This document shows positions 1 through 54,692 of a DNA stretch of 64,000 nucleotides, one piece after another. The stretch's first letter is position 1; each line of letters opens with the position of its first letter. Under the pieces are notes generated by a model. The model was not told the DNA's origin. It worked only from the letters and a program-made list of their open reading frames with translations, and ran no database searches. Position numbers and translations under genes: made by a program. This DNA is from Candidatus Omnitrophota bacterium. Lineage in GTDB: Bacteria; Omnitrophota; Gorgyraeia; Pluralincolimonadales; Pluralincolimonadaceae. The stretch lies in NCBI GenBank assembly GCA_043798215.1, contig JAZDOX010000038.1:5659-69658 (forward strand), given 5' to 3'.

Positions 1-3000
1 TTTATCTATGAATTGCCTGGACAAATAAATGGTCTGTGTAACTTGGTCGGAATAGCCGAACGACCAGTTGTTCTCATCTTCAATTATAATGCCCGGCACA
101 GGCTTTCCATTCGCATCCGTAACATCAACGAGAACCACTTTGGCGGCTTTCAATATGTCAACCACATCTTTATATCCCATTCCCAGTAATTTAGCGAATG
201 TCTCGGAGACAAGGCCATTGTATAAATCAGGCTCGTTAAATCCGCTAACATTACCATCGTATATCGTTGTCTGCGGACTATTTTTACAAGCTTCAAGCAA
301 GTCATCTTCCTCTATGTTGCCAAGGCCTTTTTGGATGGACTGCCCAAGAAAAGACTTAAATTCAAGTTCTATTTCAGCTTCTGTCACCCCGATGGGGGTA
401 AATTCTATTAAATCGCTTTCAATATTATCGAGATCCTCCAACGTTATATCGTAAGGAAGCGCGCCCTCTTCTAAGCAATAGCGCAGTACTCTCCATTGTA
501 ACAATTTTAAGTCCTTTATCGTATTTCTCAAACAAAAGTAATATACCTCGGTATTGGTGCCACCGCCACATCTGAATCCTTTTTCTATCAAATCAACGAT
601 AATCGATTTTGCCGCCGAAGCAAAATCATACGCTTCTTGAATATCATCATATTCTGTAATTATCTCTAACGCGCTTGTGCGGGAATAACCAAGGTTGATT
701 ATACTCTCAAGCATATCTTTCTTAGCCACCGCCTTATCATAACAAAGATCCTCTGTGCCGCTTTCGTTTTTGCCGGTGTATTTAAGAATAAAATCTAAAA
801 GCTCCCGGGAAGCCGAAGTAACCGTGCCGGTGTCTGAGTATACGAAATTGCCCGCACTCGTCTTGATGGCGGCTATCCTTTGCAATTTTGCCTTTATATC
901 CAGCGCGCGATCCAAAGCTTCACTGCAAGACATTCTCGCCAGCATAAAGTTGGCGCAGGCTATATTGAATCCATATTCATTGATTAATTTGTCTCTGACC
1001 AAGAGGCGCTCTTGCGCAATGGCAATTGCTTTGCTAATCCTGTTCTTATTTATAATCCGGAATGCCTCAGAACGAGTTAATCCTAAATCCATTAACTGGC
1101 AAAGTAACGATTTACCGTCCCTTTGGGCTGCTTTAAGCTCATCTATAATATTGATAGAGTGTGAAGAATATAATTCTAAAGATTCCCTATAAGTAAAACC
1201 TTGCAATCCTAATCCCCTTATAATCTCATTGCTGCCGCCTTGTCTCAGGAACTCGATCAAAGCCTTATATCCCTTACCGGAATAGATAAATTCACATAAA
1301 TAAACGCTTACTTTTCCTGTCTTAACTTCTGGGGAATTTTCTATAAGATAGGCCACGTCGCGCGCTCTGCCCAATAAAACCTCTGGATTCCTAGCGCCAT
1401 TGTTAATTAAATTCTGCGCGAAAGAACCGCTGAATCCTATATCTTTTAATTCCCTGATCAGGGAATTAATTTCGCCAAATAACGCGATGGCGTCATTTTC
1501 CGTTATCACCCCGTACGAAATCAAAAGATCCTTCGCGTTGCCATCGCTTAGCATGTCTTTTCTTACACCCCTGGTTGCCTCTATATTTTTGAATACATTA
1601 TCAAGAACAGCCACAGTTTTCACCATATTATAGGAATAGAGGCAATTTATTATTTCATAGACGGCTATTCCAGTTTGAACCAAGCGATCAAATTCGTTCA
1701 CCGGGAAAATCGAAGAGATCAATCTTCTTCTATAAGAAGCGGGATTCTTGCACATTTCATCCGTTATTTTATTATTATAATAATCAACCAGCGTCTTAAG
1801 TCTTGCGCTCAACGCATTATAATCATAGTTGAAATTCTTGTTTAAAATATTCTCCTTCTCTTGCGCGGTTAAAACGCCTTTCTCTTTAAGAAAATCGAGG
1901 CCGCCGCTATAATATCGGACAAGCGCGTTTGCCATTAAGCCGCTCTCTTCCGCTGAAATTCCCGCTTCTTTAAAAGAACCTGTCAACGTTTCTTTTAATT
2001 GGACTTCCTGCCTTGATAAGCCGCCTCCTCTTATCCTGTAAACCCCATTATTTTCGTAGAGAACGGCCGCCATATCCTCAAGCGCGCCGCCGACGAATAC
2101 CTGATTTTCTCTCAATAATCTCCACATCGCTTCCTGAAGTTCCTGGATCTCGGGAATTGAACTGTAGAAGCAGGTAATAACGACGGGATTGCCATCTCCA
2201 TCAAGTAATGGATTTCCGTTGGAATCTTCAAGAATAACCTCTTGTTCTGTCATCGAGAGAGTTGAACGAATGGCATTAAGAGCGGTTTGCTGTGTCGAAG
2301 TTATTATTTCTAATCCTTCATAGCGCTCCAGCTCGGCTATTTGGGCTAGTGCTTCGTTGAGAATAAAGATGGCATAATTGTGGTCTGATTCGCTGTCATT
2401 TTGGTTTCTGGCGTTAACAGCGGCCTTCAGACTGGTTATGGCTCCGTCGCTTAAGACAGCGGAGGCATCATCAATGATAATTTCTCCTTCGAAAATTTGA
2501 TATACCGCGTCAAAAGCGATATGCTCGGCTTCGTGGCAGAAAGCGGCTTCTTGTTCATTCATCGATAAGTCCTTTGATATTAAGATCAAAGAGCCTATCT
2601 TTAAGGCGCGGGCAGGGATTAAATCTCCGGCTTTGTAACCGCTTGGTATTGTATCTGTCGCCTCGTATACGCCAAAGGTGTCTATGCCTAACGCCTTTTG
2701 TATCTTTTCTATTACGCTCTGCGAAACAAGCGAAACTCCGGCGTTAAACTGTCCGCCTAAATCTACGATGGTATTCTCAGTCTCAACCAATTCCCTTAAA
2801 CGAACAACCGCCACGGTTAATTCTTCGGAGCCGCTGGGGGCGATCTCGATATCGCGGATGCGGGCGTCTAACTCGTCGGCAAACGAGCATCCGGCATTTA
2901 TTATCGGCTCGTGAGAATCCTGACTCTGCGCGGCATCTCCGATCTGTTCAACGGTAGACGCTTCCTTCTTGGTCAAAACGATCATATTTTCGATGAGATT

Positions 3001-6000
3001 AAAACCATCAAAGTCCCCTGCCACCTTAACTTCGCCAAGGATAGCGGGCAAGACATCTTTATCTTCATCGAAAAGATATCCGAATTTAGAAGCTTTTATG
3101 GCGGCGATCGCCAAATTCATAACCGAATCCGACATAAATGTGTCGAAAGCGATTACCAGGCTGCCGTTTGGAACCAAGCTGTCGTAGACGGCATTGAGCT
3201 CCTTAACCGCGCAATCCATATTATAGAAAAGAGTCGGATCGACTATAACCGCTATGTCTACGGTATTGGGCCTATCGGCAAAGTAAGCGGCGTTTATGTT
3301 CTGTTTGAGGGTGTCAACCATCTCGAAGCTAATATCCTCAAGCCCAAACAAATCCCTGTTTTCTTTTGCCTCCACCAAAAATTCAAGATTAACATCTATT
3401 CCTTTTATCGCAACCGTCTGGCCTGTGGCTTCTTGAAGGCCTCTTTGAAGCGCTAAAGCGTATGAGCAAGAACCGCAATTAACAGCCACAGCGTTAAGTC
3501 CCTCTTTGGCGGAATAATCTATCCTTGCGCTTCTGAGGGCATAATTAATATTCTCGGCAAATTTAGTGTCCTTCGCATATTGGTCTATTAACATTTGGGC
3601 CTGTTCTTTTATATCGCCTGTCTGCGCCAACACGAATTCTGCGTAATAATTTTCATATCCGGGGCTGCTTAAGAGATTGTATTTGGTCAGGCCTGCGGCA
3701 AGGCTGTCATCCAAAATCATTAACTGCTTTGCAACCTCATCTTTTAAGGCGCGGTTATCGGTTATCCAGTTGGGCAGATAAGAGACAACGATTGGGATTG
3801 CTTCATTGCCGCTCGCAATGCCGCCGGCGGCGTCATTTTGCCAGATGTGATAATAATACTGCTCATCAAAAGACAAATCGGGCTGCGCAATAAATCTTTT
3901 CTCGACTATACCTTCCGAGGCAATTAAAAGATGTGAACGATTTAATTCCGCGGCTCTGTCGTAATAACTAATGTTAGGCGTTAGATCTTTTAATCTCTCT
4001 TTAATCTCGCCAAGATTCGTTGAGGATAGGAAATTGCTGTTGTAAAATAGTGCGGCTTCTTTTACTTTTATACCTAATCTGTCTATTTCAGTATCGCAGA
4101 TATGCTTTATAGAATTGTGACCGTCCATATCATTGACATGGATCAGGACGTAAACATTCTTCCCATCTCTTTCACCCCTAATGATAACCCCGGAGCAGCT
4201 GGATAACTCTAAGATAACCGCAGCCTCGCCTTCCGGTATCTCGGCAACCATGAAATGATCAGTAGGAACATTTATCCTTCCACATATGGGCTCTTCGAAA
4301 CTGATCGTACGTTCAGTAAAGCGCGGGGTTGGCATATTGCTTTCCGATATCTCATAAGTTGTATATTCACTCTTTGTAACCTCTAATAAACCCGACAAAG
4401 TCCAACGTTCATAACTTGTTACCGCCTTTCTTAATTGCGCCTTAAAATCGGTGGTTGTTGCCGGCGAGACTGCGGCCAGCATATCTGAAACATCTACAGT
4501 TATATTTACTATATTATAATAAACGGTTTCGGTCGCGAAATCATCAACCGCCGCGCAAACACACCATCGGTATCCTAATTCGCTCTTATCCAGCGCTCCT
4601 TCTATAGAGAAATCTCCAAATTGCACTAACACTATATCATCGGGCGAATATTTCTCGTAAATCTCATTTAAGCTCTCGCCGTAATAATAACCGGTTACAA
4701 CATCCTTGCCGTCGATGGTCTTTATTACCCCGTAGGCGAAAGACAAAGGTATCTCCAACATAATTTCATTGGCGGCGCAAAGAGCGATATTGAACAAGTC
4801 CGTCTCGGCCTTCTTTGTTGTATATAACTGGCCATTCTGGTGGGTTATTACGCTGGATAAGCTGTCTGCGCTTAAGGGGTTGACGCCTTTAGGTTCTTCA
4901 AAAGACTTAAATGAGTCGCTGGAAGTTTCTCCGATGGCTATTGATTCATCCGACACATACGACCTTACTATCTCAACAGCGGTTGCGGTGGTAGAAACTA
5001 TGCTGTAGGATTCTACGCCGGCAGAAACCAAAGCGGATTCGCCCTTGGCCAACGTAATAGTCGGCTTGCCTGTTGCCCTTAATTCAACGGTTCCGCTTAA
5101 GACAGTGATTATCTGGAACTTCTCGTTCGTCTGCTGGTTAGAGAGAGTTGACATACCGGCCATATCTATCTTATCGACCTTAAAGAACTCGCAATCAACC
5201 AAAGTCTTTATCTCCGGCTGCGAAGTAACTTGAGGCGTCCTTATGAAGTCGTCTTTGGTCGTCTTTCTGAAATCAAGGACGTCCATACATTGGCTTATAT
5301 GAAGCTGTCTCTTTGGAAGCCTGTTCCAGTCCCATGCCCTGTAAGTGATACCGCTTGACTGTTGGATTTCGGCTATTCTGCATCCAGAGCCTATGGCGTG
5401 AATAGTAGTGGAAGGAATATAATACATCTCTCCTTTGGTAACCACGAATTTATTTAGATATTTATCGGCTATATCGATATTGCCGGCGTCTAAGTCTTTT
5501 CTAAATTCATCTCTTCTGTCTATTCCAAGCTCAGGATTATACACCTCTTCCTTAAAACCAAGATACAGAACGCTTCCAGGATCGGCGTCCAGAACATACC
5601 AACATTCGGTTTTGCCCAAATCGCCTTCCTTCTTGGCGTATTCATCATCTGGATGGACCTGAACAGAGAGGTTCTCGCTTGCATCCAAGAACTTAACGAG
5701 GATTGGATTCTCGCCATCGGTTATGTCGTTGATATCTTCGCCCATAATATCTTCACCTGCTATCTTTAACAGGGCGGGTATGGATATCGTAACGCCGCTT
5801 GTGGGTAAAACAACCTGGCTTGGGCTGTCCTTATGTCCGGACACTTCCCAGGACTCGCCTATCTTCTTATTGTCATAGCCGGAGAGGCCTTTCAGCGCGG
5901 CTATGAAATCTCCGCCCCAGGGCTTTTCGACCAAGTTATCCGTCTTCGGCTTTATTATCTGGCTCTTTAATGTGTTTATATCGGTAACAGCGTTATTGTA

Positions 6001-9000
6001 TTGGGTAATATACTCTTGTTTTTTGGCCGCTATCTGGGCAAGAGTAGCTGTCTGCATATTCGTCGCTATCTGGCCAAAGGAATACTGGTTGCCATATTCG
6101 GTCAAAACAACGTCCCAGTCTTTCTTTCCGTCGCGGGCTATATTGGTCTTCATACGGCATCTGCCGTTTACCGGATCATAGACATCGGTTAGAGCCTCGC
6201 CTTGCTTGAGGCTCATATAACCGGCCTCGACCACGTTATAGGCTATAGCATTCTGGGCGTCTAAACGAATTATCTTGGAGCCTATGACAATACAGTTCTC
6301 GACGTTCAATTCTTCGGCTGTTACCCCTATTAAGATACTGTTTACTATCTTGCCGCGTTTTATGTTGCAATCTCTCATAACAGAACCTGAAATAGTAACT
6401 TCCTGAGTTAGGGTGTTTGTCCCATCAACCCATCTATCGTCGGCAACTCCATAGAATTCTCTCATTGCCTTTCCTTCGGCGGAATCTTCCAAAAGCTTCA
6501 TATTGTTCTGATAATAGAGGTTTACCTGGCCGTAGTCCCACCAAAAGCTTCCATTTCCGACGTCTTTGTAGCCGAAGAGCCTCTTATCGGGAGACTGGGT
6601 CTCCAGATAATCTTTTACTTCTTTTGCCTTGCCCGATACACCCGAAGAAGTCCATTTTTGGTAGAGATCGGGATCTGTGTCGAGCTTTTCTTTCTTAGCA
6701 GTAAGTTCGGGATTAAAAACATCGAGAAGTTTATCAAGCGCCACTTTATCCCACGAGAAAGAACCCAAACTCTTTCCAGCCACTCTCTTGTCTTCCTCAT
6801 TTGGCGCAACCAACTCTACAGCCTGGTCATAAGGCGTCTTTTCTCTCAATTGAGCAACATCGTTGTTAGCGCCCAGAATAATCAGGCCGTAATCCTTAAA
6901 ACTCTCATCTAATTCAGCCTCTACTGCCAAAATTTCCACGTGGTGTTCCCCGTCGAAGCTAACATCGGCATTAGGTATAAAGACTTGATCTCCCCAGAAG
7001 ACGCAAAGCCTTCCATCACGGGTATCGGCAAATAGGCCGGTCTGATATATTACTTCCTCAAGAATGGTTACCGGTTCCTTTACCCCGCCAACATCAACCA
7101 ACTGGGGAGCTTTTATCGCCGGCTTGTTGTTGCCCTCGGCGCCCGGAAGAGGAGCCATCCTTGTCCCTTTACCTGCGGTGTGATACATTGCTATCTTCTT
7201 ACCCGCGGCTAACTCGGCCCCCAAATCTATCGAAGAAGCCATAGCCTTTAATTCAGCGTTGTTCCAGGCGTTTAGGCTACCCAATAGATTGCCCGCCCCG
7301 CCTGATGCCCAATCCGCTTCAGAGACCGAAAGAATGACCGCGCCGCTCTTGGTTACCTGACTGCGAGTAGCCTCAAGGCGGGCCTGCCAGTAATTGGCCT
7401 GGTCTTCTGTTGGAGAAACAACAATGATGTAATCGAAACCTTTATTTTGCTCTACAGCTTCCTTCATCTTATTGATAGAACGTTTGTGCTCGACTATCGA
7501 GGAAGTATCCTTTGAAAGCTCACATGTTTCCGCCATAAACGAAGCAAGAATCTTTTTCTTTAGCTTATCCGCCATATCGAATTTGCTACTGGCAGTGTCT
7601 AAATAAAATGCGGGATAGCCTGCGGTGGCAAGAATATTTATGATGAAATCCTCGATATTTAGCTTCAAGGTATTATCAATCCCGCCTTCTATCCTTCCCG
7701 TTGAAGCCAAACTCTGCAATGTCAAAGCCATAGATTCAAGGTAAAAAACGGGGGTATCCTGCAATCCTTCAAAATTATAGGTTGAAAGCAATTCCGTTCC
7801 ACCGGAGACGCTTTGCTTAATGGCCGCCGCAAGGACATTTATTTCGTTTACCAGCGCGGCTTTCATAAGCGTGTCGGAAACGATATCCAGAAAATCTTTA
7901 ACATCGTAGAGAAACAGAGGGTCGGTGGTTTCTTTAGCCGCCACAGCTTTAAGCGTTATCGCCATATTTTTAATGCGGGCGATCATCTTTATTCTCTTAT
8001 CTGCCTTAACAAGATAATCCGGTTCTTCTCCCGCCGCGCCGATCAATATTTCAGGCATAAGCACGAGAAAATCCGTCATCGTCAAATTCTCGCTAAGATA
8101 TAGAATCCCGTTTAAACGGTAATACGATCCGTTATTGGATAGAACCTTAACAAAGCCATCTTCGACAATCTCTACCCCTTCGTTTGTTCCTGTTGCCGCC
8201 GTCATCAGCGCAGCCACAAGCTTTGAGTTATCGTCGATATCTTTTAATTGCAAATCGAATATGTTATTAGCCGAAGCCATAACAACAAATTGCTCATAGC
8301 CGCTCATAGTCTCGGAAATACTCTTATCAAGTGCGCTGTCGTCGGCGGAGGTATGAATGCCGGCTCCGGTGTTACAGGGTTCAATGACGCCTTTCTCGAC
8401 AATATTTCCCTGTAGATGTCCTTCATATCCGGGTATGGTAAGCTCGGCGCCTTCGTGAGCGATAAGAGCTTTTATCTCATCTATCTTATTTTGGGCAATC
8501 AATCTGTCCATAAAATACTTCGAAAGAACTACTATCTTTTCCCCTGTGCCGCTGTCAACATAGGAATAGGCAACGCAATATTTATCCCTGTTTTCCACAT
8601 ATATCGCGGGGGCCTTATTCCAAGTCTCCATAACCTCAATACGAGAACCCTGGAGTGTGTTGGCAGTATTTCTGAATGTCGCAGCTTTTGTAACATCGCT
8701 TATCAAATCGAGATCATCGGCTATCTTATTTAAATCTGCGATTGAAGCGCCGGCTATATCGCCGTAGAATGAACTTGCGCTGGTTCCATTTTGCCAAACG
8801 GTCTTTATCTTTCCTGCCTGCCTTGCCAGCGCTATCTCCACTTCAACTGTTTCGTTTGCGACATTCTCGCCTTTCTGGCCGCCCTGGGTTAAGTCAACGT
8901 TTTCCTTAGACCACTCTTTTGCCTCATCCAAAGGTTTGGCGTCCGTTGCGGATTTATCGTCAATGCCTTTGTTGTAATTCCAGTATAAAGCTCCATCGCC

Positions 9001-12000
9001 ACCCGATGTCTTGGTTGAATTCAAGTTATCTGTCAGCGATTTAGAGGTGTTGGCCGTCTGAAATTCCTCGAGCATCCAGGCTTTACCCGCTGGAACATTG
9101 GATACAAGACCGCTTAAATTTCCCATCCAGTCGTAATAATGCAGGGCGCAGTAATCAAGTTTAGACTGCGCGCCGCTTAAAACGCTTATGTGTTTCGCCG
9201 ATACGCCGGCGGTAATCAGAATATTTTTATTTACGGTTTTTATGACATCGGCGCAGGCATTTATAAATTCGCTTATGTCCGAGCGGCTTATAGGCGAAGA
9301 CGCTTTATAGGCGTCGTTGACAAATTCCCACCCGCCGCCTTCCACAGACTTAATAAGCCATTCCGGCTCGTTAATTATGTCTATCGTCATAAGATTCGGA
9401 TGATTTCCGAAGTCGCTCATAAACGGTTTTAGGAAATTATCGAAGAATTCTTGCCTCTTTTCCACATCGGTAAAGATGGCCGAATAGCCGCCCAACTGCT
9501 CTCCGTTTTCTATTTTAGCCTTATTGGCTATGTGAAAATCAACAAGCGTAAATTCTATTCTTATTCCGAACTCCGCAGCGATATCAAGAAGAACTCTAAT
9601 ATCTGTCTTGAATTGTGTGTTGTATCCGATTATATTTCCGGCGGCGTCGAATAGACTAATACCGTTATCCAATAATCCCATACGCACAAGGCTTATATTG
9701 TGGTCTTTCATATCCTTGAATTGCGCGCGCACAATATCGCTATGTTTGGATACGCCATTTCCTGCCCCGCCAAACCAGTCTGTGGTTCCGAAATTTTGTC
9801 CATAGGAAGAGTTTCCTTGAGAGCCTCTGTAATTTGTGCCCACAAAGAACCTCTGCTCGCCTTCCACGTAGAAGTTGCCGTCTTTGACTTCAACCGGCGC
9901 AAGGCGGCCGGCGGTTTGAAATTTTTCCGCCATTTTTTGGACTTCTTCTGTCTTCTTCTCAAGGTCAACCTTTTCATTATGGGCAGCAACGATATTTTCC
10001 ATCTCAGGGGCGACAACGCCTTCTATCTTTTCCGCCGGCGTTGTAACTTCAGCTATTGAGGGCGCGGGTTCTTTGGCAATATCGGCCTTTCTTCCGGCAA
10101 GTTTAGTTCTTGCAAATTCCGCGAAGGTCCCGTCGGTTGTATTCTCGAATCCGGCTAAATTAATAACCAATACATCCGCCTGCATCCACACCTTCTGGCT
10201 GTTTTCGTCGAAAACAATCCTGAACTTAACCCCGGAGTTCGTAAGATCGGTGTGATATTTGGAATAGACCCTGCCGCCGCTCACAACCTTTCCATCCCCT
10301 ATCACTTCATCCAAAACGTCTATCACTGCTGTAGCGCTGAAAATATCGGTTACGCTACGATCTACCTCGACACTAAAACCCTTGCCTTCGAATTGGCTCG
10401 TAAAATTCCTTATCTTCTCTGAATCGGTCAATCTGAGTATTTCATCTTCTATAGCATTCTTTATGGAATCTATGCTTTGCTCAAGGACGTCTTCGTTTAT
10501 AACATCCTCTAAGTTATCTTCCAGATACTTAAGCATCGCCTGTTTCTTCTCCTCAAGCTCGGCGTCGTCTTTGGCTCCCGTGTCAAGATAGACCTTGAGC
10601 TCCTCAACGTAAGCATTCCAGAGAACTTCTACTACGGCAATCTTATCCTCTAATTCTTTTACTCTGGCATCAACGTCTATAGTCGCGTAATTTATGCCTT
10701 TCTCCGAATCATAACCAAGCGTCTTTTGCTGTTCGAGCAATGTTCTCAACGCAGACTTCCCGCGGCATATAATCTCAAGCCACATAGCGCGTTCGCCGTC
10801 AATGTTGTATTTCTCGGCGCGCAAATCCCAGTAATCGGCTTCGGTTTCGTATTTGGCTTTAACTAACTCTATCGCGTTTTTAATCATAACGGTTATTTCG
10901 TCAACGCAAGCCGCGAGAGATTTAATAGACGGATTATTTGGATTCTTGAGCTGATAATTGGCCGCGGAATTCCACGAATTCGTAAACCCTCCGGCGGCGC
11001 CGGAATTCTCAAATGACGAAAATGTTGCCGTATCTGGATGCTCCACAATAAACGGCATATCTTTAGGCGCGTTTGTTAACGGATTTTCGCCGGTCCGCGA
11101 TTTAACGATGATGAAATTGATGTTATTTATGCCGCCGGTATATTTCAATTCGCCGGCCAAACCCGCCTTTTGCGAAGACAGGCTGACACCTGCCAATTTT
11201 CCGGTTAGGCCTCTGTTAACAATAGGTTGAACGCATTTATCCAGAAAAGATCTAACCTGCTCTAATATAAACGCGTTTGACTGGCTGCTTCCTCCTCCTT
11301 CATCCTTCGCTATAATCTGATCAACGTTGTCAATAAGGACAACCCCCATAAAGGCATCATGATTTATATAATTCTCGACAAAACTATTCCAGAAATTATT
11401 AAAGAAAGCGTCCCCGCTTCCTCCCCTGACTATCTCTGAAAATCCGGCAGCGCCTAAACTATTCTCGTCCAGCAGCGTAAACATAACCTTAATATTGTGT
11501 TTTTTGGCCAAGTCGAGAAGATTCCTCACGTCGGACCTGAAAGTCTCAAGCCAATTAATCACTTTTATCTCGCCGTTTTCGTAACGACCGAACATTGCGC
11601 TTCCATCGCCTAATAAATTCATCGAGATCGCGCGGACGCCATTTTGAGCCATTCTTCCAAGAGCCGCGTCAACTCTTGTAAGATTGGCGGTTATGCCGTT
11701 TGCGGCATCTCCAAAATTCGTTTGGGCCGAACCGAATGCTTGGCCGGTTGTTGCGTCAATAAAGGTGTTTGAACTGGTTCCGCGGACGTTCCATATCTGG
11801 TCATCAAGATATATGTCCGCGCCTTTTACAGTTACGACGCCTGTGCTGGAAACCTTTTGCGCTTCTAACTGATGTAACCGCTGTTTCAATTCATTTGCCG
11901 TAGCGGAAATTTTCGCTTCCAACTCGGCGGCTAAATTAGCCGCCGCTGTCTTGGCATTCTCTTTCAGGAATTCATTGGCGTCTTCAAGTTCGTAGATGTA

Positions 12001-15000
12001 GTTCTTGAAAATACCCTCATAAAGAGGGCCGAGGCCGGAAACAGGCTTAGTAGAGATATCCGCATTGGCACAGAGATTCTTTATATTTTCCGGCATCGCG
12101 TCTAAATCAGCGGCTCTCTTCTGATTTTCTATCTCGGCAATAAGTTCGTTCGAGCGCTGTAAATAGCGTTCTTCGGAGATTTCATTTCGCTCAAAACTGA
12201 AATAAACCTCGTTTAATTGCAATCTCGCATTGGCCATTCTTATTGCGGCCTCATTCGCCCTTTGGACCCTCTCCGCGGCATCATAGATAGCGTTTATGCG
12301 GGTATATTTTTCGTTATTCAAGGAGTTTAATTCCGCCCAGAGAATTCTTGTTGTTTCATCTTCAGTTCTATAAATTCTGTCGCCGGTAGAAGTCAATATA
12401 TCCTTTAACTCCTCCTCTTCCTGCTCTAATTGCGTCTTGGTCGTCTCGATTTTAGCTTCTGCTTCCAGGAACCGGCTGTCTATATCGGTAATTGCCGCTT
12501 TTGTCCCGGATATCATCGAGAGTATCGAGTCGGCTACTATCTCATTGGCCTTAGACTCGGGAAAATTGGCGAAGGTTTTAGCCGATATTTCACCAAGATC
12601 AAGCAAGGAACCTGCCATAACGTTGCGATAATCCTGCCAAGCGGCGGCATTCTCTTCTTCTTTCAGCTCAACTTCCATTGCCGCTTTTTCATAATCTCTG
12701 CCTGTTTGCGCTATCTTTTCGTCAAGGCGCGCCAACTCTGCTTTGTCGATCGTTAATTGCGCCTCCGTATCGGAAAGGATCTTCTGCTGCTCGGCCGCGG
12801 TTAAAGCGGCGCTATCCAAACATTGCTGATAATAGGCCATAACCTCCTCAGTCTGGACAAGCTGCCCCTGCGCGCGGCTGCAATAACGGCCGGATTGATA
12901 AAAATTTTCGGACGCTATTAATAATTGCAGCTTAAGATACGACAACTGTTTTAAGAGGCCGTCGGGATAACGCCGTATCTTGTCGCCAAGTATGGCCGGA
13001 ACGGGAGAATCCCTGCGAGGCGTAACCGTTCTCCCATTGCCTAATAATTCCTGCAACGCCTTAACTTTCATTAGATATATTTGGAATTCTCCGCCAAAAT
13101 CCTGTTCTCTATATTTTTCACGCAAAGTGACAGGATCGAGCTCGGCCAATTTAACATCTATAAAATCAACCGCTTCGTCTATCTGTTGTTTTATCTCCTC
13201 AAGCCAAACCGCGTTCTTCTTCTGGTTCTTATTGGCTATCTCTATATCTATCTTACAAGACTCTGCAACCCCTGCGATATAGGTCATCTCATTCTGTATT
13301 CTTGCTTTTAACGCGGCGGTGTCGCCTACAGCCCAGCCTATCAGATATTCCCTGAAATCCTCAAGCCGCTTAATTCTTTCTTCAACCTTAATCTTTTCCT
13401 TTCCCGCTTCAATGGCTTCTTCGGCGGCCTTCTCTTTGGCAACAATCGCCTGCCCGAGAGCCTCATCGCTCTCTCTGACATAGTTCTCCTTGACTACCAG
13501 CGATTGAGTCCGCTTCATAGTGTCTTCCTTCGTAGGCGCGAAAAGATTATTGAAATAATTAAGGAACTCGGTCTTCCAGCCGATTATTGTGGCTATAGTT
13601 CCGATAATAATGGCCCACGCAACAGGGCCGAGCATCCCTTTCTCGAACCATTTCTTGAAATAGTCGCCCACCTCGGAGAAGGCTATATCGGTGCCTGGTA
13701 TTCTCGTATAACCAACTTTGACCGTAAGGCCTGTATGGGCGGTCTTGTTCCACCAGGAACCTCTTCCTGTCGTTAACTCCGCTATAGCATGCATAACAGC
13801 CGGTATGTGGAAAGTTAAATATAGAGGAGTCCCGAGATTCGCGGTAAAGAGGCGCCATTTCATACCGCGCACAGCCTCGCTCTCATATTGAGTGTTAATT
13901 ACTAACCTTACAGTGTCCCATACCACCGCTCCAAGCAGGCCTGCTGATAGCGTTACTAAAGGCCCTGCGGATAAGAGGGCTGCGGCTGCGGCAGGCAAAG
14001 CTGTAAGGATAGCAAAAGACTTTATCTTTGATGAAGCGGCTGAGCCTGACTCTAACTGGCCGATATATTGCTCAGTCCTTCTTATTTCATTCTGGCAGGA
14101 TAGCCTAAGACGTTCGCCGTCGGCGCGCGCCTTCGCCAAACTCGCTTGCCCCTCTTCTAATCTTCCTTGGGCTATCAATTCATAAGCGTTGTCAAATTGG
14201 AATCTCTTCGGGTTCTTCTTATCGTAGAATTGTTTTATAATTCTGTCGTAGTAAACGTCTCTAGCCACTTGTGAATCTGGGAGGTCTTGTCCAAACTCTC
14301 TTATCTCATCGAGAGCGGCACTCATATCCCTCATAGATTTATCAAAAAGGAACTCATCGTTGGCTCCGGGAGACAAGATAGATATTTCGGTAAGTAGTGT
14401 CTGTATGAGTATCGGGGCAAGGACTAAGCTTAACCCGGCTATAGTCGGATTAAGGCCTAACATCTTAAACCAGCTGAATAGATACTCATAGCCCTGGACT
14501 ATACCGAATAAGCTTAAACCCTGTTTTATCGCAAATCCCAGACCATACAGCATAGTCACAATAGTGGTTGCCATCTGGAATATAGAAGACGATCCGCCGC
14601 CGCCCAAGATAAGCATATAATTGAATATACCGGTTATCCCGACTGTCTTATAGGCTTCCATAATATTTCCGCCGCGGGTATAGACAAGAAGTGTCTGCAG
14701 ATAACCCTTTGTCCAGCGGGATCTTTGGCCGGCCATACGCCCGCCGACATATTCATCTATCGCCTCTTCGCCGGTTACAGTGTTTGCTACCGTAGTTCTG
14801 TATCCTTGGAAGAATATCTGCATGCCAAGGTTGCAGTCTTCGGTTACATTATATCCGTCCCATCCGCCTAATTTCCTCAATGTCTTCACATAAAAGAAGT
14901 TGGAGGTTCCGCCTAACGGAACAAGCGTTCTCTTAGTTATAAAACCAGGCAAGACTAACTTAAACCAGCTCTCGTAATCTCCAACAAAACCTCTGGCGTT

Positions 15001-45000: not shown

Positions 45001-48000
45001 ATCCGAATAAAGTATTACCCTGCCTGTAGCGTCATAGAGCTCCTCGCTTCCATTCTCGAACTCAATGGCTCTTAAGGTATCCGAGGCGTCGAAATGGCGT
45101 TCGTAGGAGAGCATCTTTGAGCCGTCGGTATTGGTAAGTTCATCCGAAAGCGCCATTCCAAACCTCAATGCCTTAAGGCGTTCGTATCTATCTACTATCG
45201 CGTAAGGCGAGTTATTATCAAAGAGAATCTTCCCTTGTATGTTGTCATTTGTCTCAATCAGAAAACCATTCGAATCGAATTCATAACTGGTCTTTATCTT
45301 CGGGAAGAGATCGATATTGGGATTTATATAGTATAATCCACCGCTGCAGTTATAAAAGAAATCCCTGTTGAGCGCGCTTAGAATTATCCGATAGCCATCC
45401 ACGGGAATATCAGAGGTCTTGTTCGTATAACCTTCCAGCGAATTATCGTCAAAATACACTCTCTGTATGCCGTTTGAAGCCAAAATAATATCTTCGTTTC
45501 TGCACCCGAGGCGCGTCTTAAGGTCGTTCTTGGCGTTATTAAACAAACTAAACGTAGCTTGTATAAGAACCGAGTCTTTTACGTAAACACCCGTTGTGTC
45601 AGTGTGATACTCCACTATTCCATACGAAGGATATGTCATCTTTATGATATAGCCTGTAACAGCCGCATCTCCGGGCGCAATATCTCTGTATCCATCGAGA
45701 GTTGCGTCTGTAAACCGCGTTTTAACGCAGGATAGTATTTCGATATCGGCTATAGCCGCGCCTGTCAGGGTAATAAAATTTTGACGCGCCTGCCGCGCTA
45801 TAAGATAACCATCTTTATCGGTTTGATTAAGAGTAAGTTGGTGGGTCATTGTATCCGTAAGATAGCGAAAGACCATATGATCCGCTTTCAAATCTACAAT
45901 AATGCCGTTGTTATCTTTATCTACTCCGGCAAGCTGGATATCGTTGGCGGTTATGGCAGTTGCGTAAACAGTTGCGAATGTCGAGATTAATTTTGTTCGC
46001 GCATCGGCAATTGAGGTTAAGTTGATCTCTGGGTCAAGAAAATAACTGGCTGCGTTGCTGTGATAGGTATAGGTCGCGCCGTTTACCGAAAACTCAATAA
46101 CATAGCCATTTGTAGGAGAAGGTGCAGTGCTCCCGCCTGCGTTATAACCATCAAGAGTGGCGTTGCCGAAGGTCTTGGCCAATAGCGAACTTGAGTATAG
46201 CTTAATATCGCTTTCGGCGGAACATTTTACGATACCAAATAAGCTTGTTCTGGCGCTTTTTATTAGACTATACGCGGAAGAAAAGACAGGATTCATTTTT
46301 ACTATAGTGATATCGGCTTGTGTTTGCGAGTCTTTTTGCGGGAAGATATGATATTCACATTCTATGCCGCCAGACTCAAGCATAACTTTATAGCCTTTAT
46401 AAGAGGCGGCCACAACAGGACTCGCGAGATATCCGCCAAGAGTGCCGTCTTCAAACAGAACCTCGGTTATGTTTTTGACTGTTATATTTGTAGCTCCCAA
46501 GCCCGTCCATTCATTGCGGGCAGTCTGGATATAGGCCAGGGTTTGCTTCATCTCGGGATCGAGGTCAAAAACGCCTGTTTTAGCGTTGGTATGGTACTCA
46601 TATGAGGTTTCACCGTAAGCAAGCACAATATCCAAACCCACCGTTATGGTATTCTGGGTTTTTGTGCGGTAGCCTCCAAGCGAATCATCCGCCCAGAACT
46701 CATAATCGGCTCTTATAAGTTGTATCTTATCGGTTGTTATATTAAGGCGGGCAGCCAAATCCGCCCTTAAGGCGTTTACAACGTTTTTGGTGTCATATTT
46801 CATCTCGAGGGTTGTGGATATGAGATTATTAAGGGCGTCTCTTTCTTCGGTCTTTGTTATCGTCTCGTTGGTTATGGCGGTGGGAATAGTTACGGAGCCG
46901 CCGTTTAGGTTGACTTGCCTTCCACCTTGATCGGTTATGCTTAAAAGCTTTCCGGTCTGGTTATCGAATTTATAGAGTACTCCGTTTGAGACTAATTCGA
47001 CGGTCGTTATCACCTCACAACCCTTTGACTGGTCGTAGACTTTAGTATAAGTTATCCTCTCAGTCTTTCCGTCGGAGTAGAACTTGCCTGTCAGAAGGCC
47101 GTCTCTTAAACTCATAGTAACGCCACGATCATCCTGGATGATTTTATCCCTTCCATTCTGCGATTCGATTCCCGAGACTATCGCTGATGGCTTATAGAAA
47201 GTGGTTGTCTCTTTTCTAACTATCTCGCCCTCGCTTACAAGCTCACTCTTTGTCTCTATAATACCGCCATCATCGCTAATAGCGTATTCAAGCCAGCCTA
47301 TAACATCGCCGCTACTATTGTAATTTACTTTCCTTACGCTTAGTGGATCCGCCTCGGCTGCCTTCCACTCGCTGTCCACCTTAACAGCAACGCGTTTGTT
47401 CGTCATAATATCGCCGTGAGCCTGTATCGTTGAGATTGCCGGATCCGAAGGATATATCACAAAACCGTCATCTTCGGCTATTCTTACATTATCAACATAA
47501 ATCTGGCCGCTTGCCGTAGCTCCGTTAACAACAAGGGCAATCCCTCGCACATCGTCTAAGTCGGCTACCGGTATCGAGAAGCTGTCCGTCGTGCCGGCTT
47601 TTCTCCATCCAGGAGAACTGACGTCAAAGACTATTGTGTTGGCGCCGGAATTTAAAACCTGGGCCTCGCATTCATACCATACTTGGCCCTCTCCGGTTGA
47701 AAGGGCGACATTTACCGTCTTTTGCGCGCCGGGATTGTATATGTCGAACTTGAACCTTGCCATATTGACAGCGCCTTCTTCGGGAAGGGATTCCGTTGTT
47801 ACAGACCACATCTCTTCTATGCCTTCAAGCTTGAAGACAGCTTTATCGTATCCGCCCACAAAAGTAAGCTCTAAAGAATTTAACCCTTCGGTAACATAAC
47901 TTGTGGAAATGTCTATCTCTCTGGCGCCGGTTGTGGTATCGGCCGCCCAACTGGACTCTAAGCTATGAATAGGGCTCTCGCAATCATCGAATAAGACATC

Positions 48001-51000
48001 TCTCATACCTTCGTAGCCTAAGTTCCAGAAGCAGGAACCGTTTACCCCTGTATTCTGCATCTCGGCATAGTATTCCTGGAACCTGGTTACTCTGTCCAGC
48101 TCGTCGTACTGGGGATAACGGTATTGCTTTATCTCGCCGAAGCCGCCCCAGTATATGTATCCCACGGTATGAATTCCGTATTCCTCCATAATGACGGGCT
48201 TTCCTATCTTGTTATGGGCGTCCTCCAAATGCTGCCTTATCCATTTTAAATGCCTTTCAGAGTCATCTTCGGTGGGGAATGAGTTAAACTCCGACTTGTC
48301 TATATATGTCCTGAAAGTGCAAAAGTCTATGCTGGGGCAGCCATCTCTCCATTCGCTCATAACAGGGCTATTGGCGCCTTCCTGCCAGCTTACAAGGGTA
48401 TCGGTAGATTTGTTGTCGCTTATGAAGTCTATTCCGCTGGAGCCGTTTGTGACACCGTAAATCCAGTGGTTGTAGGGAAAATCCTGCCATTCGAACTCTT
48501 CGGCTTCCTCTATGGGCATAATGTAGTTACCTTCCTCGCCACATCCTATCATATGGTTGGGGTCTATGGCATCTACGTAATTGGACATCTCCACTATCCA
48601 GTTATGGACCCAGCCGCCTGAGACATCGCTCTTGCAGCGGGGTTCGTTGAAGACCTCCCATGCAAGTATCGTGGGGTCGTCTTTATATCTTATGCCGGTT
48701 ATGGAGTTTGTCCTATTTAACAGGTAGGTCACGTAATCCTTATACCACTGCTTGCACCAATCATTGACGTAGAACTGGTCGTGGAAGGGGTCGTTCTGGC
48801 CTATCGGGTCTACTTCGTTTCCATATTTATCAAAATCGGGCAGGCTCTCGGGATGTTCTTCGTAAGCCCATCTCATATACTGGTACATACCGCCGTAATG
48901 ACCCCAGTTGTCTACCAGTGGGAGTATGAGACGTATGCCTAATTTACCGGCAGTAGCTATCATCCTGTCTAAATGCTGGAAGGCGCTTTCGTTCCAGACG
49001 CCTCTTTCGGGTTGGTAGCTTGAAGGTTCTCCTTCTCCAAATGCCCATGTCCGGACTACAGTGCAGCCCATATTCTTTGCGGAGGTCAAGACGTTCTCTA
49101 TGACATCGTCTGACTTCTCGAAGAGATACTCGGAGTTGGCGCCCGCAAAGAAGAAGCTTTCTCCGTTTAAGACAAAGTTGGTGCCGGAGGCCTCTACTAT
49201 GCCGTAGTTTTCCTGCGTATAGGCAGAGGACAGCTCTTCTCCTCCTATGGCAACGTTATCTATGTATATGGTCCCTTTATAATCGGTGTTCGCCCAGAAC
49301 TGTATGCCTACCTTTATTATGGATTTAAGCTCTTTATCGGTCATAATCCTGGTTCCTTCATAGTCGGCAAGGTCGGCTAAATCGAATTCCAGGGTATTGG
49401 CATTAAGTCCGCCTACTAACTGGCAGTTGCTGTGGAACCATATGTAGTCTTTTGTGACATCATCATAGCTGGCTACCCAGATGGTTGCGGCAAAATCTGC
49501 CGTTCCTGATTCGGGGGAGCTGAACTTAACATCGGCTGTTATCTTCTTATGATCTTTATTGCTTAAGTTTATGGGAGGGGTATACATAATTCCGGTAAAA
49601 CCTTTTTTGTCCTTGTCAAGGCCTGTGTCCACATCGAAGTCGGTATCCATAGCAAGTGAGTTGTCTTTCCAGTAGACAGAGTCGAAGGCATCCGCGCCCC
49701 AACCGCTGTCTGTGTCCCAGCAGGGAATCTCATTTACACAGTTGGAGTTGCTAAAATCGTAAAGATAGCTTTGCGGAACAAATTCTCCGGCGGTGGATTC
49801 ATAGGAGTATTCGTAGGCGAAACCATCTCCTAAGGCCTCTTCTTTTATAAGGCGGTTCTGGATATCGTAGCTTCTCTTCCTTATAACGTAAGAGCCGTCG
49901 CCGCTTAAAGATTTATCCAGACTCGAGAACTTCCAGCTCACATTACCTTCAGGCTTGTTATCGTAGTATTTCCAGATAGATGGATAGGTGCCGGCTTTTG
50001 GATCGTAGGTGGCTGCTCCAACCAAAGCGCCGTTATGGCCATTTCCGGAGAGGTCAAGGGCTGTCTTGGTGGCGTAATCGTGATATAGCACAAGACCGCC
50101 TAAGGCGATAGATCCTTCCTTGCCGGCCTTAATCTCATCACTCTCAAGCGCCCTGTCATAGACCCTGAGAGAAGATACGGAACCGTTTAAATTCCTGGCG
50201 ATCTGTAAATTGGCGCTATTAAGTTTAAGTTTAATACCCGTTTTACCTGGAACAGTACTGCTTAGAGGCGCGTTGTTATTTAAATAAAAAGTTAGATTTG
50301 CAGTAGCGGTATCATAAGTAAAAGCTATGTAATTCCAGCTGCCGGCGGTAATCGCAAAATTATACGCTACGGTAGAATTATCGGCAAATGCCAAGCATAC
50401 GGTTATGGTATTGCTGGCTATCTGCTTCAACCCGTATGAGTTAAAATCGTAATCTCGCGTCAGCAAATAAGTCGAATTATTTAAGCTATTGAATTTAACC
50501 CAGGCCTCAACAGTTACTTCGTTCTCTATGTTCGGACTGGGGACGGAGCAGCTGATATAAGAGTCGTTTCCGGTCAAATTAAGACCTGATTTGGCGCTGC
50601 CAAGATAATCCACGCTCTTTATTTTACCATCAGGATAATATGAAGTTTGCTCAAGGATATTGTTTAAGGAATCCTTTTTAACGGAATCTACGAGGACATT
50701 ATCTACCACATTGTATTCATAGGTAAATTTATTGCCTGCCGCATCCACATAATCCACAAGCCGGCTTCCCCCGCCTATTACGGCAAACTCGCTGAAATGC
50801 CTGCGGCCGATAAAAGTCCACTCTTCGTTATAATCGAACTGCCAATTTTCACCGGTATTCTCGTTGGAGCAAAGAGTCGTTTTATAGATAACCGTCCCTG
50901 TCTGCTGAAGTTTCTTGTCGACAAATTTGTACTTAACCGCGCTTGGATAGGCCGCTATGGCATAATAGCATCCGTCATTTGAATTATAATCGAATTCCGA

Positions 51001-54000
51001 ACTTAGTATGCTTACGTTAAATTTATCGGCGGAAGCAACAATTCCCAGATTTACCATATCATCGCGAATAGCCTGCTTGAAGGCAAAATCATCGCTATTG
51101 TGATAAACGGCATCCGTCTCGGCAAGCCTCATCTCTTTGGCAAGTTCATTATCGTATTTGTCGTACCATAAGTAATACTTACAGGAAGCATCGGAAGCTT
51201 TCTTTATCGTCAGCTTCATCCAGTGATTGACGGCAGCATCTTCAGCGACACTTTCTATGATGGTATTTACCGCATTCTCTTTGAGGCCGCGGAATAAATC
51301 CACCGAAGCCATAAGAGCGTAATCTATATGAGCCGAATTAAAAACGCTACACCCGCTTACGGTAAAAACAACATCTTTGTATTTACCTTGAAAGGTCACT
51401 GTCCCACCCTGCTTTATGTACTCTATCTGACTTGTTTGGCCATCCAAGTCATAATAATATGAAAGGTATTGATGTTTTTCTGCGGGGCCATTATCGAATC
51501 CTAAACCGGTCTCGGCGCCGTAGGTATATTTATCGACGCTCTTTTGTTTGCCATCCAAATAATATTTGTAGTCTGTTATTATCTTCTTGCTGTAGGGTTG
51601 CGGCGCGCCTGTCGGAGAGAGGTATTGTTTCTCGGTTATATTAGATACGTTTCCCGATGCCTCATAAGCGTAAGAGGCTATCCATAACTCTAGATTATTA
51701 CCAGCGGCATCCTTGACGTATTTAGTATACCCACTCAAGCAGCTGCCGCCGGATTTGTATTCGGCTATAAAATAGTAGATATAGGACTCTGATCCGGAGG
51801 CTGTCTTATATATATTAACTATATCTTCATTTTTATACCTGCTGAAGTCATAGTTTGTGGTCACGGTCTTGATCGCCTGATGAGAAGAATTCTTATCTAT
51901 AACAACGCTCAAGTATAAATAACCTACGCCGTAAGAGGCGCTTATCTGCTTATAATTACCGGCTGCGTCAGCAGGAGTATTCCAGCTGCATACCAAAGTA
52001 TCTCCTGTCTCGGTATAATTCAGAGTATATTGCACATTATTATATTTATAGACAGCCGAATAGCCCGCCGAAGAGATGGCCGCCGACACGAAAGCAACGG
52101 AAGCCGGCAGTTCGTCTTCAAGTAAAAGTTCAAAAAAACTTCTGAGATCTTCTTTCCCCTCAAAACATATCGAATCGTCTCCTACGGTCTTATTCTCATA
52201 GAGCCAATAGACTTTATCTACGTCGGTCTTTACTCCAACAACATCTATAGACGCATAATTAGCGATCTTTTTGGAGGGAATCCAGCTGCATCCCGAAGAA
52301 CAGACTATACAATAAGCTTGCATCCAGTCAATTATCGACGTATCGGCCAATGCCGTTCCTAAGGTATTCTTTATCTGCGTGCAGTTTCCTCCCGCGGCAA
52401 CAATCTCGGCCTTGACTTCGGCAACGGTGTAATCACAGCCGTAGACAAAGGTAACAAGGTTATCTCCGGCTATAAGGCTTACAGCTGTCTTCTCCTGGGA
52501 CTTGGCAAGATTGCCTTTGCTTAAATAGCAGAGGCTGGCTTCTCCTATATTCACCACTACATAGGCCTCTCCAGCCTTAAGCTCAGTCACAGCGGGATCT
52601 TTTAGAGAAACATTGACACCCTGGTCATTAAGCTCTTGAATGAATTCGGACGCGGTATAGGTGTGGTTCTCTATCCAGGGCATAATTATGGCGCTTTCGC
52701 CCTGGGCTATGTAGACGCTCCTGTTCCAGTCGACAATTGTTTCGGATTTTTTAACGCCGTCTTCATAATAGTCGCTTATGGTAACCTGACCTAAGTCATT
52801 TACGGACTCTATAACGCGGCCTCCTGAATCGAGGATATTCGGATAAAGGCCGCTTGCCTTTATAGCTTTAAGCTCTCTATCGGTTAAAGGCGTTATCGAT
52901 TTGTCTATAATGTCTTCTGTTCTTACAAGGGCGGCCTTGTCCCACTGATTAATAAATATATCCTTTTTAGCGGATATGGTATTGCCGTTTATGTCTATAT
53001 AAGAAACGGCATCTTTATTTACATCCGTTAAAACTATATAATGGCCGCCTGCCAAATGGCAGATAACAGGCAAAAAGCCCTCTTCTTTACTATAAGCGTA
53101 TATATCCAGAAGATCCTCATAATCAAGGAGGGCGCCGATAAGATGGACATCATATCCTTTTGCAGCTTCCTTAATAGCGTACATAGAAGTCTGGAGTTTA
53201 CCCGATGTCTCGTCGTTTATTACACCGTTTAAGATGTCTATTAAAAGCGTCTCTTCGGCAAGCTTATCTTCTTTTACTCCTGTAAGTAAGCTAATGGCTC
53301 TTGAGGCGCAGTTGATTACATTATCTATCTGGGTATTGAGCCATTCCGATATCTTTAAGAAGGCCTCTTTTGTGAAATTAGAGACAGACTCTACTATGGA
53401 TAGGACGTTTTCTATTATGGATTTTCCTGAAGACTGCGCGGGAGCCGGCTCAATAGAAGCTTTTTCTTCTTGTGTTATTTCAGAAGCCTGGTCGTAAAGG
53501 GCCTCTTTCGAAACCGCGGACGGCTCCTCCGCTTCCGGCTCAACAACAACCGGAATCCCTGTTATAACGGCTTCTTCCGGTTCAACCGCCGCGGGAAGAG
53601 GTTCTTCGGAATCTATAATATTTAAAGGTTCTTGCAAGGACGCCGGCGCGGCAGGGCTTTCCTCGTAGTCGTCGGATAATATCTCCGGCGGCTGTTCTTC
53701 CTGCGCTTGTTTATCAGGGGCTTCGGTAAAGACCGACTCTATCACCTCATCGGATTCTATCGAATGGGGCTTATCCTGTGGTTTCTTGCCGCCTCCAAGC
53801 AGGACCTTTAATGGCGAGGTCAGTATATCCACAGCGCCTGTTACTATATCTTCCGAGAGATTTAGGCCTTTAGGAATTAAGCCAATCATATCTTTGGTCA
53901 AGTTAAAGGAGAATTCCCCTGTCTTGATTAAAGCGTCTGTTCCAATCTCAACTGGCTTGAATATATTAAAACCTTCCTTATCTTCGGAAGGAGCCGCGGA

Positions 54001-54685: not shown

Positions 54686-54692
54686 CTCCCCC
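54686..54692 (-). promoter_or_regulatory. Shine-Dalgarno (GGGGGAG) for the giant ORF, 7-nt spacer to ATG
   Basis: Minus-strand sequence reads GGGGGAG-CTAATTG-ATG. An in-frame TAA sits immediately upstream of the ATG. Confidence 0.55.

Follow-up and report, generated by a model that had tools for sequence, protein, structure and literature searches.

The stretch of DNA analysed here (hereafter the window) comprises 64,000 nucleotides (nt) of contig JAZDOX010000038.1, positions 5,659 to 69,658 of the forward strand, from the assembly GCA_043798215.1 of a Candidatus Omnitrophota bacterium. Most of the window is occupied by one giant open reading frame (ORF) on the minus strand (1..54678), which begins with the ATG at 54678-54676 and has its 3' end outside the window; the left window edge cuts the ORF, so that the 18,226 or more codons seen are a lower bound on its length. 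A preliminary description of this DNA had proposed a single unbroken minus-strand ORF with this start, and complete translation of the frame bears it out, with 0 stops in the 18,227 codons between window position 54681 and base 1. An in-frame TAA at 54684-54682 lies directly before the start of the frame, the first codon of which is at 54681-54679, and the ATG is codon 2 of the stop-free frame. A Shine-Dalgarno-like GGGGGAG, read from the sequence, lies 7 nt 5' of this ATG (54686..54692, minus strand), and about 210 nt farther upstream there is a promoter-like TTGACA-17-TATGCT arrangement (54892..54920, minus strand; by consensus match only).

Coding signature and continuity of the open reading frame

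The remaining minus-strand frames contain 1,433 and 1,370 stops over the same region and the three plus-strand frames 658, 742 and 992. The coding signature of the open frame is uniform along its entire length, with a purine at codon position 1 in 0.65-0.72 of codons and a GC content at codon position 2 of 0.34-0.41 in 18 out of 18 bins of 1,000 codons. An alternative genetic code was considered and ruled out: TAA, TAG and TGA are all absent from the frame, and the seven complete flanking genes, which are of ordinary lengths, terminate with TAA or TGA. Since these neighbours use standard stops, the open frame is not an effect of the genetic code. The ORF is missing from the list of ORFs that was supplied with the sequence because that list leaves out ORFs running off the end of the source, which accounts for its having been described as hidden. 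Within 1-54600, the plus strand has only five ORFs that reach 140 amino acids (aa), and a Pfam scan of these five and of one further ORF of 102 aa produced no match, a result consistent with the earlier view that they are antisense shadows of the giant ORF. Neither Rfam families nor tRNAs were found in the window.

Could the frame have been created during assembly, by the in-frame fusion of at least two fragments of unrelated ORFs or of strain variants, such that the 54.7-kb frame exists in no cell? An exact 40-mer of the left end is absent from the GTDB genomes and from the JGI metagenomes, and an exact search with CinA retrieved no contig, so that there is no independent assembly; giant genes in metagenome assemblies are known to need curation (10.1101/2023.11.21.568195, Methods). 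The ORF itself, however, contains no tandem repeats, and its dispersed repeats are imperfect matches of at most 34 nt, so that there is nothing to provoke a collapse or mis-join. Its relative synonymous codon usage correlates with that of the flanking genes at r=0.94 (0.89-0.95 when each third of the ORF is compared with the seven flanking genes), and tetranucleotide profiles of 8-kb segments correlate at r=0.93-0.96 with the window and at 0.79-0.87 with the flank, indicating a homogeneous signature over all segments. Each join, moreover, would need to keep the frame and avoid stops, and aa 8286-9768 are colinear over several modules with an independent Omnitrophota giant fragment, described below. 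We therefore regard an assembly artefact as very improbable.

The same holds for the possibility that the frame comprises several adjacent genes which happen to share it, the stops between them having been lost or never present, and which are translated separately from internal starts. The chain is a mosaic of enzymes that otherwise occur free-standing (mannanase, GT2 glycosyltransferase and mannose-6-phosphate isomerase), and 11 in-frame ATGs have a motif resembling a ribosome-binding site upstream. ATGs preceded by such a site nevertheless make up 3.4% in frame versus 4.6-6.0% in the other frames, and this lack of in-frame enrichment gives no sign of internal starts. The coding signature shows no gaps of a non-coding kind, the chance of one stop-free frame over 18,227 codons, computed from base composition, is approximately 1e-491, and related ORFs of 5,000-7,300 aa are equally continuous. 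Furthermore, Omnitrophota ORFs of at least 20 kb are transcribed as a single mRNA according to Seymour et al. 2023, as cited in 10.1101/2023.11.21.568195. Independent domain matches (RHS, C39, LamG, GH5, GT2, mannose-6-phosphate isomerase and methyltransferase) all fall in the one frame, from aa 128 to 17,177. Separate translation is as hard to credit as a faulty assembly.

The N-terminal region and a putative external arm

All features of the chain described below are encoded on the minus strand, and their nucleotide coordinates are those of the window. A hydrophobic anchor or signal-anchor is predicted at aa 58-80 (54442..54510), where the Kyte-Doolittle profile has a peak of 1.84 over aa 55-73. 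It is followed by RHS/YD repeats at aa 128-207 (54061..54300), matched by NCBIfam RHS_core with an E-value of 9e-5 and a score of 20 bits against a cutoff of 2000, and a further RHS repeat is located at aa 3696-3724 (43510-43596; Pfam RHS_repeat, 24.9 bits). A C39-peptidase-like domain is placed at aa ~451-588 (52918..53331) by a marginal match to Pfam PF03412, which covers only aa 497-588 and scores 23.2 bits against a cutoff of 22 (E 6.4e-5; 20.8 bits within a 5,000-aa piece). The candidate residues Gln451, Cys458, His547 and Asp563 were chosen by eye, and the region of the catalytic Cys falls outside the Pfam match; a PDB sequence search with this region was empty, and a single-sequence AF2 model had a predicted local distance difference test score (pLDDT) of 44 and was unusable for fold search.

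Carbohydrate-related domains come next. A Concanavalin/LamG lectin-like domain at aa 1371-1518 (50128..50571) is matched by Pfam Laminin_G_3 (60.3 bits, E 3e-16), and a weak mannanase galactose-binding-like module at aa 1703-1809 (49255..49575; Pfam Mann_GBD_bact, E 1.4e-3, below cutoff) directly precedes a GH5 endo-beta-1,4-mannanase domain at aa 1824-2235 (47977..49212). The latter matches the PDB entries 8gf3_A (E 4.7e-52), 3pz9_A (E 2.9e-46, over aa 1833-2171) and 9m20, and carries the motifs NEP (2012) and EEYG (2166); as judged from the sequence, it is clearly a GH5 mannanase, with the catalytic motifs kept and apparently intact. Two repeated modules of ~200 aa each follow at aa 2682-3125 (45307..46638; self-BLAST, 26% identity, E 8e-9), and in the entire chain self-BLAST detected two internal duplications only. 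Up to about aa 6,560 the chain is rich in Tyr, Gly, Asp, Asn, Ser and Thr (40-53%), and after about aa 7500 the composition turns rich in Glu, Lys, Gln and Arg. From the domain order, this shift in composition and the literature, we infer that the first ~6,500 residues constitute an external arm.

A divergent SecA-like ATPase within the chain

The only block of the protein that is conserved with other giant ORFs, aa 8286-9810 (25252..29826), consists of helical modules and a SecA-like motor. When 1.84 billion representative proteins were scanned exhaustively with HMMER, seven matches only were returned. Five of these are ORFs of 5,010-7,348 residues, and at least two of the five (P0001 and P0004) are fragments limited by their contigs. 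The best match, P0001 (MBU1006332.1; E 2e-53, 37% identity), is incomplete and takes up the whole of a 15,030-bp contig from a Candidatus Omnitrophica metagenome-assembled genome (MAG); another of the seven comes from a Chlamydiota MAG, and P0003 is annotated at source as a 'YD repeat-containing protein'. In BLASTP alignments, aa 8286-9810 are colinear with residues 1991-3222 of P0001 and also with P0002-P0005 and P0007. A word-indexed homologue search of 5.8 billion clusters was empty for both the SecA-like block and the alignment of the seven sequences (A1), a negative that is no proof of absence for proteins this divergent, given that the exhaustive HMMER scan found up to 37% identity. No close relatives of aa 8750-9800 were found in the JGI metagenomes, and the A1 alignment was too divergent for seeding a locus search.

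Within this block, the region of aa ~8805-9500 (26182..28269) contains the motifs SGGKT (8829), ADEIHD (8966), AGASAT (9219) and GRAPR (9459). Taken alone, the sequence has no match by Pfam, PDB sequence search or BLASTP, and an hmmsearch of the SecA-like profile against the PDB was likewise negative; only profile-profile and fold comparisons succeeded. Alignment by hhalign of the seven-sequence profile with residues 202-472 of E. coli SecA gave a probability of 83% and an E-value of 8.5e-6, and Pfam SecA_DEAD (PF07517) is matched by one of the seven family members. An AlphaFold model of the block has a mean pLDDT of 52, with values of 70-90 over the first nucleotide-binding domain, and when this model was compared with the PDB by Foldseek, the top 11 matches were all SecA (best E 1.6e-7). 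The motifs, the profile alignment and the model together suggest that aa ~8805-9500 form a very divergent SecA-like ATPase embedded in the chain, such as is described for the published giant proteins.

The block has several points in common with canonical SecA (E. coli b0098; B. subtilis PDB 1tf2 and 3jv2). The Walker A motif (GGKT) is colinear, the Walker B segment reads DEIHD...ILSG in place of DEVDSILIDEARTPLIISG in SecA, AGASAT stands for LAGMTGTA and GRAPR...TRIYY for GRSGRQGD..SRFYL, and there is an insertion at the position of the preprotein-binding domain. In contrast to SecA, which is a free protein of ~900 aa, the block lies in the middle of a chain of >18,000 residues; its helical scaffold and wing domains are unrecognisable, and a role in self-export is hypothetical. 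As a separate observation, the P0001 fragment closes at residues ~4985-5010 with another SecA-like Walker A segment, KIAEMATGEGKTITIAL, which is much closer to the canonical form; in some giant ORFs, a conventional SecA-type module may therefore accompany the divergent one. No second SecA-type copy is present in the visible part of the window ORF.

The helical modules, each of ~45 residues and starting with G-[LFIM]-[ST]-x3-A, occur in two arrays. The first, at aa 8286-8688 (28619-29826), lies just upstream of the SecA-like ATPase, is kept in P0001 (residues 1991-2153) and has a sub-threshold LysM match, and for the second, at aa 17560-18060 (~501-2001), the word-indexed search found no homologue at all.

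Predicted membrane segments and the enzyme-rich distal part

Approximately ten hydrophobic helices, grouped in five clusters, were recognized along the chain in a hydropathy scan only, not with DeepTMHMM. One hydrophobic cluster with one or two predicted transmembrane (TM) helices at aa 6568-6620 (34822..34980) would mark the end of the external arm; it is followed by TM pairs at aa 8013-8059 (30505..30645) and aa 12683-12736 (16474..16635), and by a bundle of about four to five TM helices at aa 13367-13700 (13582..14583), after the GT2 domain. An anchor combined with multiple TM helices, the arrangement by which Omnitrophota giants are taken to be targeted to the membrane, is thus present in the form of hydropathy peaks.

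The GT2 glycosyltransferase domain itself, at aa ~12940-13381 (14539..15864; Pfam Glyco_trans_2_3, 39.9 bits), appears to be of the processive-synthase type, with the typical motifs DAED (13033) and QRSRW (13319), and has weak matches to the NCBIfam CelA and PgaC models. Two GH5-like domains are found farther along. The first of these (paralogue 2), at aa 14250-14500 (11182..11934), was detected by self-BLAST against aa 14890-15161 (E 5e-18) and has lost the NEP acid/base motif, reading DNV instead, which suggests that it may serve in binding only. The other (paralogue 3), mannanase-like and located at aa 14890-15260 (8902..10014; PDB 2c0h_A, E 1.2e-4), retains NEP (15104) and LEEF (15204); like the GH5 domain of the arm, it keeps both catalytic motifs. 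A class I mannose-6-phosphate isomerase (PMI) domain occupies aa 16246-16569 (4975..5946), with matches to PDB 1qwr_A (E 7.5e-32) and to Pfam PMI_typeI_cat and MPI_cupin_dom, and it passes the NCBIfam equivalog cutoff for manA (TIGR00218, 136.8 versus 116.2 bits).

Several further features of the distal part are less distinct. Residues 16033-16141 (6259..6585) bear a weak resemblance to the C-terminal portion of sugar-1-phosphate nucleotidyltransferases (E 4e-5 with the NCBIfam glgC models, at scores far below their cutoffs), and aa 15700-16250 had no significant or relevant match in the PDB. A nucleotidyltransferase picked by eye at aa 15,740-16,000 was dropped, being without significant support from NCBIfam or the PDB. 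At aa 17057-17177 (3151..3513) there is a weak S-adenosylmethionine-dependent methyltransferase-like region (Methyltransf_31, E 2e-3; Ubie_methyltran, E 6.5e-3; both below cutoff). Two HExxH motifs, HEITH at aa 11517 (20119..20133) and HEAEH at aa 17383 (2521-2535), are regular-expression matches only and match no family, and a Glu/Lys-rich stretch in the distal part is coiled-coil-like in composition. Large regions of the chain remain dark: aa 5,001-13,000 have no credible Pfam match, aa 5,001-15,000 no PDB sequence match, and for the last 1,200 aa no homologue was found in the word-indexed search of 5.8 billion clusters.

Host and genomic neighbourhood

The 9.3 kb upstream of the giant gene encode cinA, ligT, pgpA, pgsA, a response regulator, a hybrid histidine kinase, a second histidine kinase and a GNAT/FemAB-like gene. 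The housekeeping genes cinA (+), ligT (+), pgpA (-) and pgsA (-), at 55424..58438 and assigned by Pfam, were used for taxonomic placement. A CinA search of GTDB contigs, with one genome per species, identified 17 loci, of which 15 match at 52-87% identity and originate from 13 Candidatus Omnitrophota/Omnitrophica MAGs and two bins labelled 'uncultured Planctomycetia'; the 13 closest relatives comprise 11 of the former and both of the latter. The remaining two loci, at ~40% identity, are from Clostridia. Where a locus is long enough for gene order to be seen, cinA is in most cases followed by LigT, PgpA and PgsA as in the window, at 41-75% identity. Overall, the four flanking genes are 45-87% identical to those of Candidatus Omnitrophota MAGs. 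The CinA matches and the cinA-ligT-pgpA-pgsA synteny together indicate that the window derives from an Omnitrophota bacterium. With Omnitrophota flanking genes and the hallmark domains of the published giants in one frame, the view of the preliminary description that the ORF is a giant of the Omnitrophota type is supported.

The place of the giant gene is not shared by these relatives. Upstream of cinA, they encode a ~1,100-aa protein with three F5/8 type C (discoidin) domains (minus strand, at L018:6687-9986, L016:1393-4767 and L003:4809-8117 in related Omnitrophota MAGs), and the slot may accommodate varying glycan-binding proteins of the cell surface. The possibility that the giant gene is syntenic beside cinA in relatives was rejected: the discoidin protein stands there, and the 1,000-aa pieces of the giant match none of those loci, which shows that the position of the giant gene is not conserved.

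The response regulator, the hybrid histidine kinase, which has three receiver domains, and the second histidine kinase (58656-63437, minus strand) lie one after another on the same strand as the giant gene and 4-9 kb upstream of it, and a regulatory link is possible. The same flank contains two plus-strand copies of a ~150-nt structured element, at 56673-56822 and 59077-~59230, which are 83% identical over 107 nt and share an exact 28-mer core that is absent from the 18 fetched loci. The element folds as a long hairpin (minimum free energy -69.3 kcal/mol, z = -8.5). Copy 1 overlaps the 3' end of cinA, and the last ~15-30 residues of CinA are without counterpart in homologues; copy 2 lies between the genes for the response regulator and the hybrid kinase. 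The element, which belongs to no Rfam family, looks like an intergenic repeat of the miniature inverted-repeat transposable element or repetitive extragenic palindromic kind.

Comparison with known giant proteins

Giant proteins of Omnitrophota have been described since 2022-2023, and the gene reported here is neither a new kind of system nor a change to the limits of protein size. The 39,678-aa protein of Ca. Velamenicoccus archaeovorus LiM, the type Archaeovorin (Kizina et al. 2022), has been detected by proteomics and rises upon attachment to Methanosaeta, both as cited in 10.1101/2023.11.21.568195. West-Roberts et al. 2023 reported giants of up to 85,804 aa with an N-terminal C39 domain, numerous TM helices and a divergent SecA DEAD domain within the chain, the 'Archaeovorin' class containing glycosyltransferases, glycoside hydrolases, methyltransferases and peptidases, with NUDIX and HEAT domains frequent (10.1101/2023.11.21.568195). 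Nielsen & Lui 2026 catalogued 5,761 proteins that reach or exceed 10,000 aa (10 kAA), 80% of which are sequence singletons; at least one such protein is present in 93.8% of complete Omnitrophota genomes, the maximum being 147,155 aa, the largest architecture clusters of long proteins are C39 and SecA_DEAD, and a neighbourhood with type II/IV secretion or pilus genes upstream and pilZ, solute-binding and GH genes downstream, found at 13 of 14 published loci, is frequent without being universal (10.64898/2026.06.07.730766). With at least 18,226 codons visible and its 3' end outside the window, the ORF belongs among the proteins of at least 10,000 aa as defined by these authors. As published Omnitrophota ORFs reach 85,804 and 147,155 aa, the earlier statement that it is among the largest predicted for any bacterium was too strong; more than 18,000 codons is mid-range for Omnitrophota.

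The points of likeness to Archaeovorins include the Omnitrophota host, the single ORF of tens of kilobases and a chain most of which is without detectable family; an N-terminal region composed of a hydrophobic anchor and, by a marginal match, a putative C39-like peptidase; a divergent SecA-like ATPase within the chain, multiple TM helices and RHS-like, beta-rich regions; and a mixture of glycosyltransferase, glycoside hydrolase, methyltransferase-like and peptidase-like modules. Unlike in Archaeovorins, no HEAT, TPR, NUDIX or GT1/GT5 domain was detected in the window ORF (Pfam, E<=0.5), nor were glycolytic-enzyme domains. The recognisable enzymes centre on mannose and mannan: one clear GH5 domain, two weaker GH5-like ones and PMI, together with a mannan-binding-like module. 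At 18,226 aa or more, the part within the window falls short of the 30,000-aa threshold for a 'giant' of West-Roberts et al., the full length extending beyond the window, and similarity to any known giant is confined to aa 8286-9810, at 37% identity or less.

The protein also resembles the multi-enzyme metabolic cluster class of Nielsen & Lui, in that varied domains tile the chain with no dominant repeat and no nucleotide tandem repeats and that it is a sequence singleton, as are 80% of their clusters. It has roughly one TM helix per 1,500-1,800 residues, whereas the proteins of 10 kAA or more in that study have a median of 16 helices. In contrast to that class, its domain set is poorer, with about eight Pfam families and ~8,000 consecutive residues (aa 5,001-13,000) lacking any credible match, and its flank consists of housekeeping and two-component genes rather than secretion, pilus, carbohydrate-active enzyme or transposase genes. 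Scattered RHS/YD repeats are shared with the RHS/YD-repeat surface proteins and toxins, from which the ORF differs in that only a few isolated repeats score; neither a toxin tip nor an RHS core bearing the PxxxxDPxGL cleavage motif could be recognized. A giant of the dockerin type was ruled out, neither PF00404 nor PF18884 being present at E<=0.5 in any 1,000-aa piece, with almost no internal repeats.

Proposed nature and mode of action

On the basis of these data, we consider it probable, at about 85%, that the locus is a genuine, very long Omnitrophota gene and that its product is a divergent new member of the membrane-anchored multi-enzyme giants, either 'Archaeovorin'-like or of the multi-enzyme class. 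A number of observations weigh against this assignment. The gene is known here from its sequence, and its C-terminus is outside the window; outside aa 8286-9810, which make up ~8% of the chain, no relatives are detectable; the C39 domain is matched only marginally, and the match to SecA requires either the seven-sequence profile or a model of low confidence. No NUDIX or HEAT domain was found, and the 9.3 kb upstream contain none of the type II/IV secretion genes that most published loci carry (10.1101/2023.11.21.568195). Finally, two distal GH5-like domains and an isomerase of a cytosolic type share one side of the last predicted helix, a conflict of topology which implies either that helices were missed or that some domains work in an unexpected compartment. 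West-Roberts et al. found the same compartment problem with the sugar-phosphate enzymes of their own giants (10.1101/2023.11.21.568195).

This conflict can be approached in a different way if the chain is a polyprotein, that is, if the giant is a precursor translated as one chain and active only once cut into separate enzymes, some of them secreted and some cytoplasmic. The C39-like domain near the N-terminus and the two HExxH motifs, or else other proteases, would provide the cutters, an extracellular-type GH5 and an intracellular-type PMI occur together with no predicted helix between them, and the same possibility has been raised by West-Roberts et al. (10.1101/2023.11.21.568195). Cleavage sites or processed products are, however, not known for any giant Omnitrophota protein, the marginal C39 match does not include the region of the catalytic Cys, and the peptides of the V. 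archaeovorus giant were assigned to one protein. We regard a polyprotein as rather unlikely, and it would be compatible with, not exclusive of, a membrane-anchored multi-enzyme giant.

For such a membrane-anchored multi-enzyme giant, the domain order, the composition shift and the literature suggest a mechanism, which we put forward tentatively and, taken as a whole, at somewhat less than even odds. It would comprise an exported glycan-cutting arm, stitching of the chain into the membrane, a SecA-like aid to self-export and distal handling of sugars. The N-terminal hydrophobic segment would anchor the chain, and the first ~6,500 residues would be exported as a long surface arm that binds the envelope glycans of a host or prey, by means of the lectin domain, the RHS-like repeats and the mannan-binding-like module, and cuts them with the GH5 mannanase. 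The approximately ten TM helices in five clusters would stitch the chain into the membrane, and the SecA-like ATPase may help to drive the translocation or insertion of the very chain that contains it. In the distal part, the GT2 synthase with its own helix bundle, the two GH5-like domains, PMI and the methyltransferase-like region would process or re-polymerise sugars at the membrane, and the C39-like and HExxH sites may cleave the chain after synthesis.

A bolder and distinctly doubtful extension is that the chain holds one mannose-centred pathway, a self-exporting 'harvest-and-rebuild' glycan conveyor that would represent a distinct architectural family among Omnitrophota giants. The exported lectin and GH5 arm would strip mannan or mannose-rich glycans from the host envelope, the SecA-like motor would thread the 6,500-residue arm outward, and the membrane-embedded GT2, the isomerase and a possible nucleotidyltransferase would convert and re-polymerise the sugar on the predator side. 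If this were true, new folds would be present in the remaining ~90% of the chain, for which roughly 15 billion proteins include no relative.

Giant genes are real and common in Omnitrophota, and an intact 5' end with a readable domain order is a new data point on the construction of such chains. Such genes are precisely what lists of complete ORFs conceal. The recurring plan of these proteins is visible here, from the anchor and the C39-like domain through a long, putatively external arm to the SecA-like motor and the membrane-embedded, enzyme-rich distal parts, and the unusually coherent mannose/mannan theme suggests a concrete substrate. The existence of the protein will not surprise a specialist; biochemical study of it would be reasonable in view of the mannan theme, the intact 5' end and the almost complete absence of relatives.

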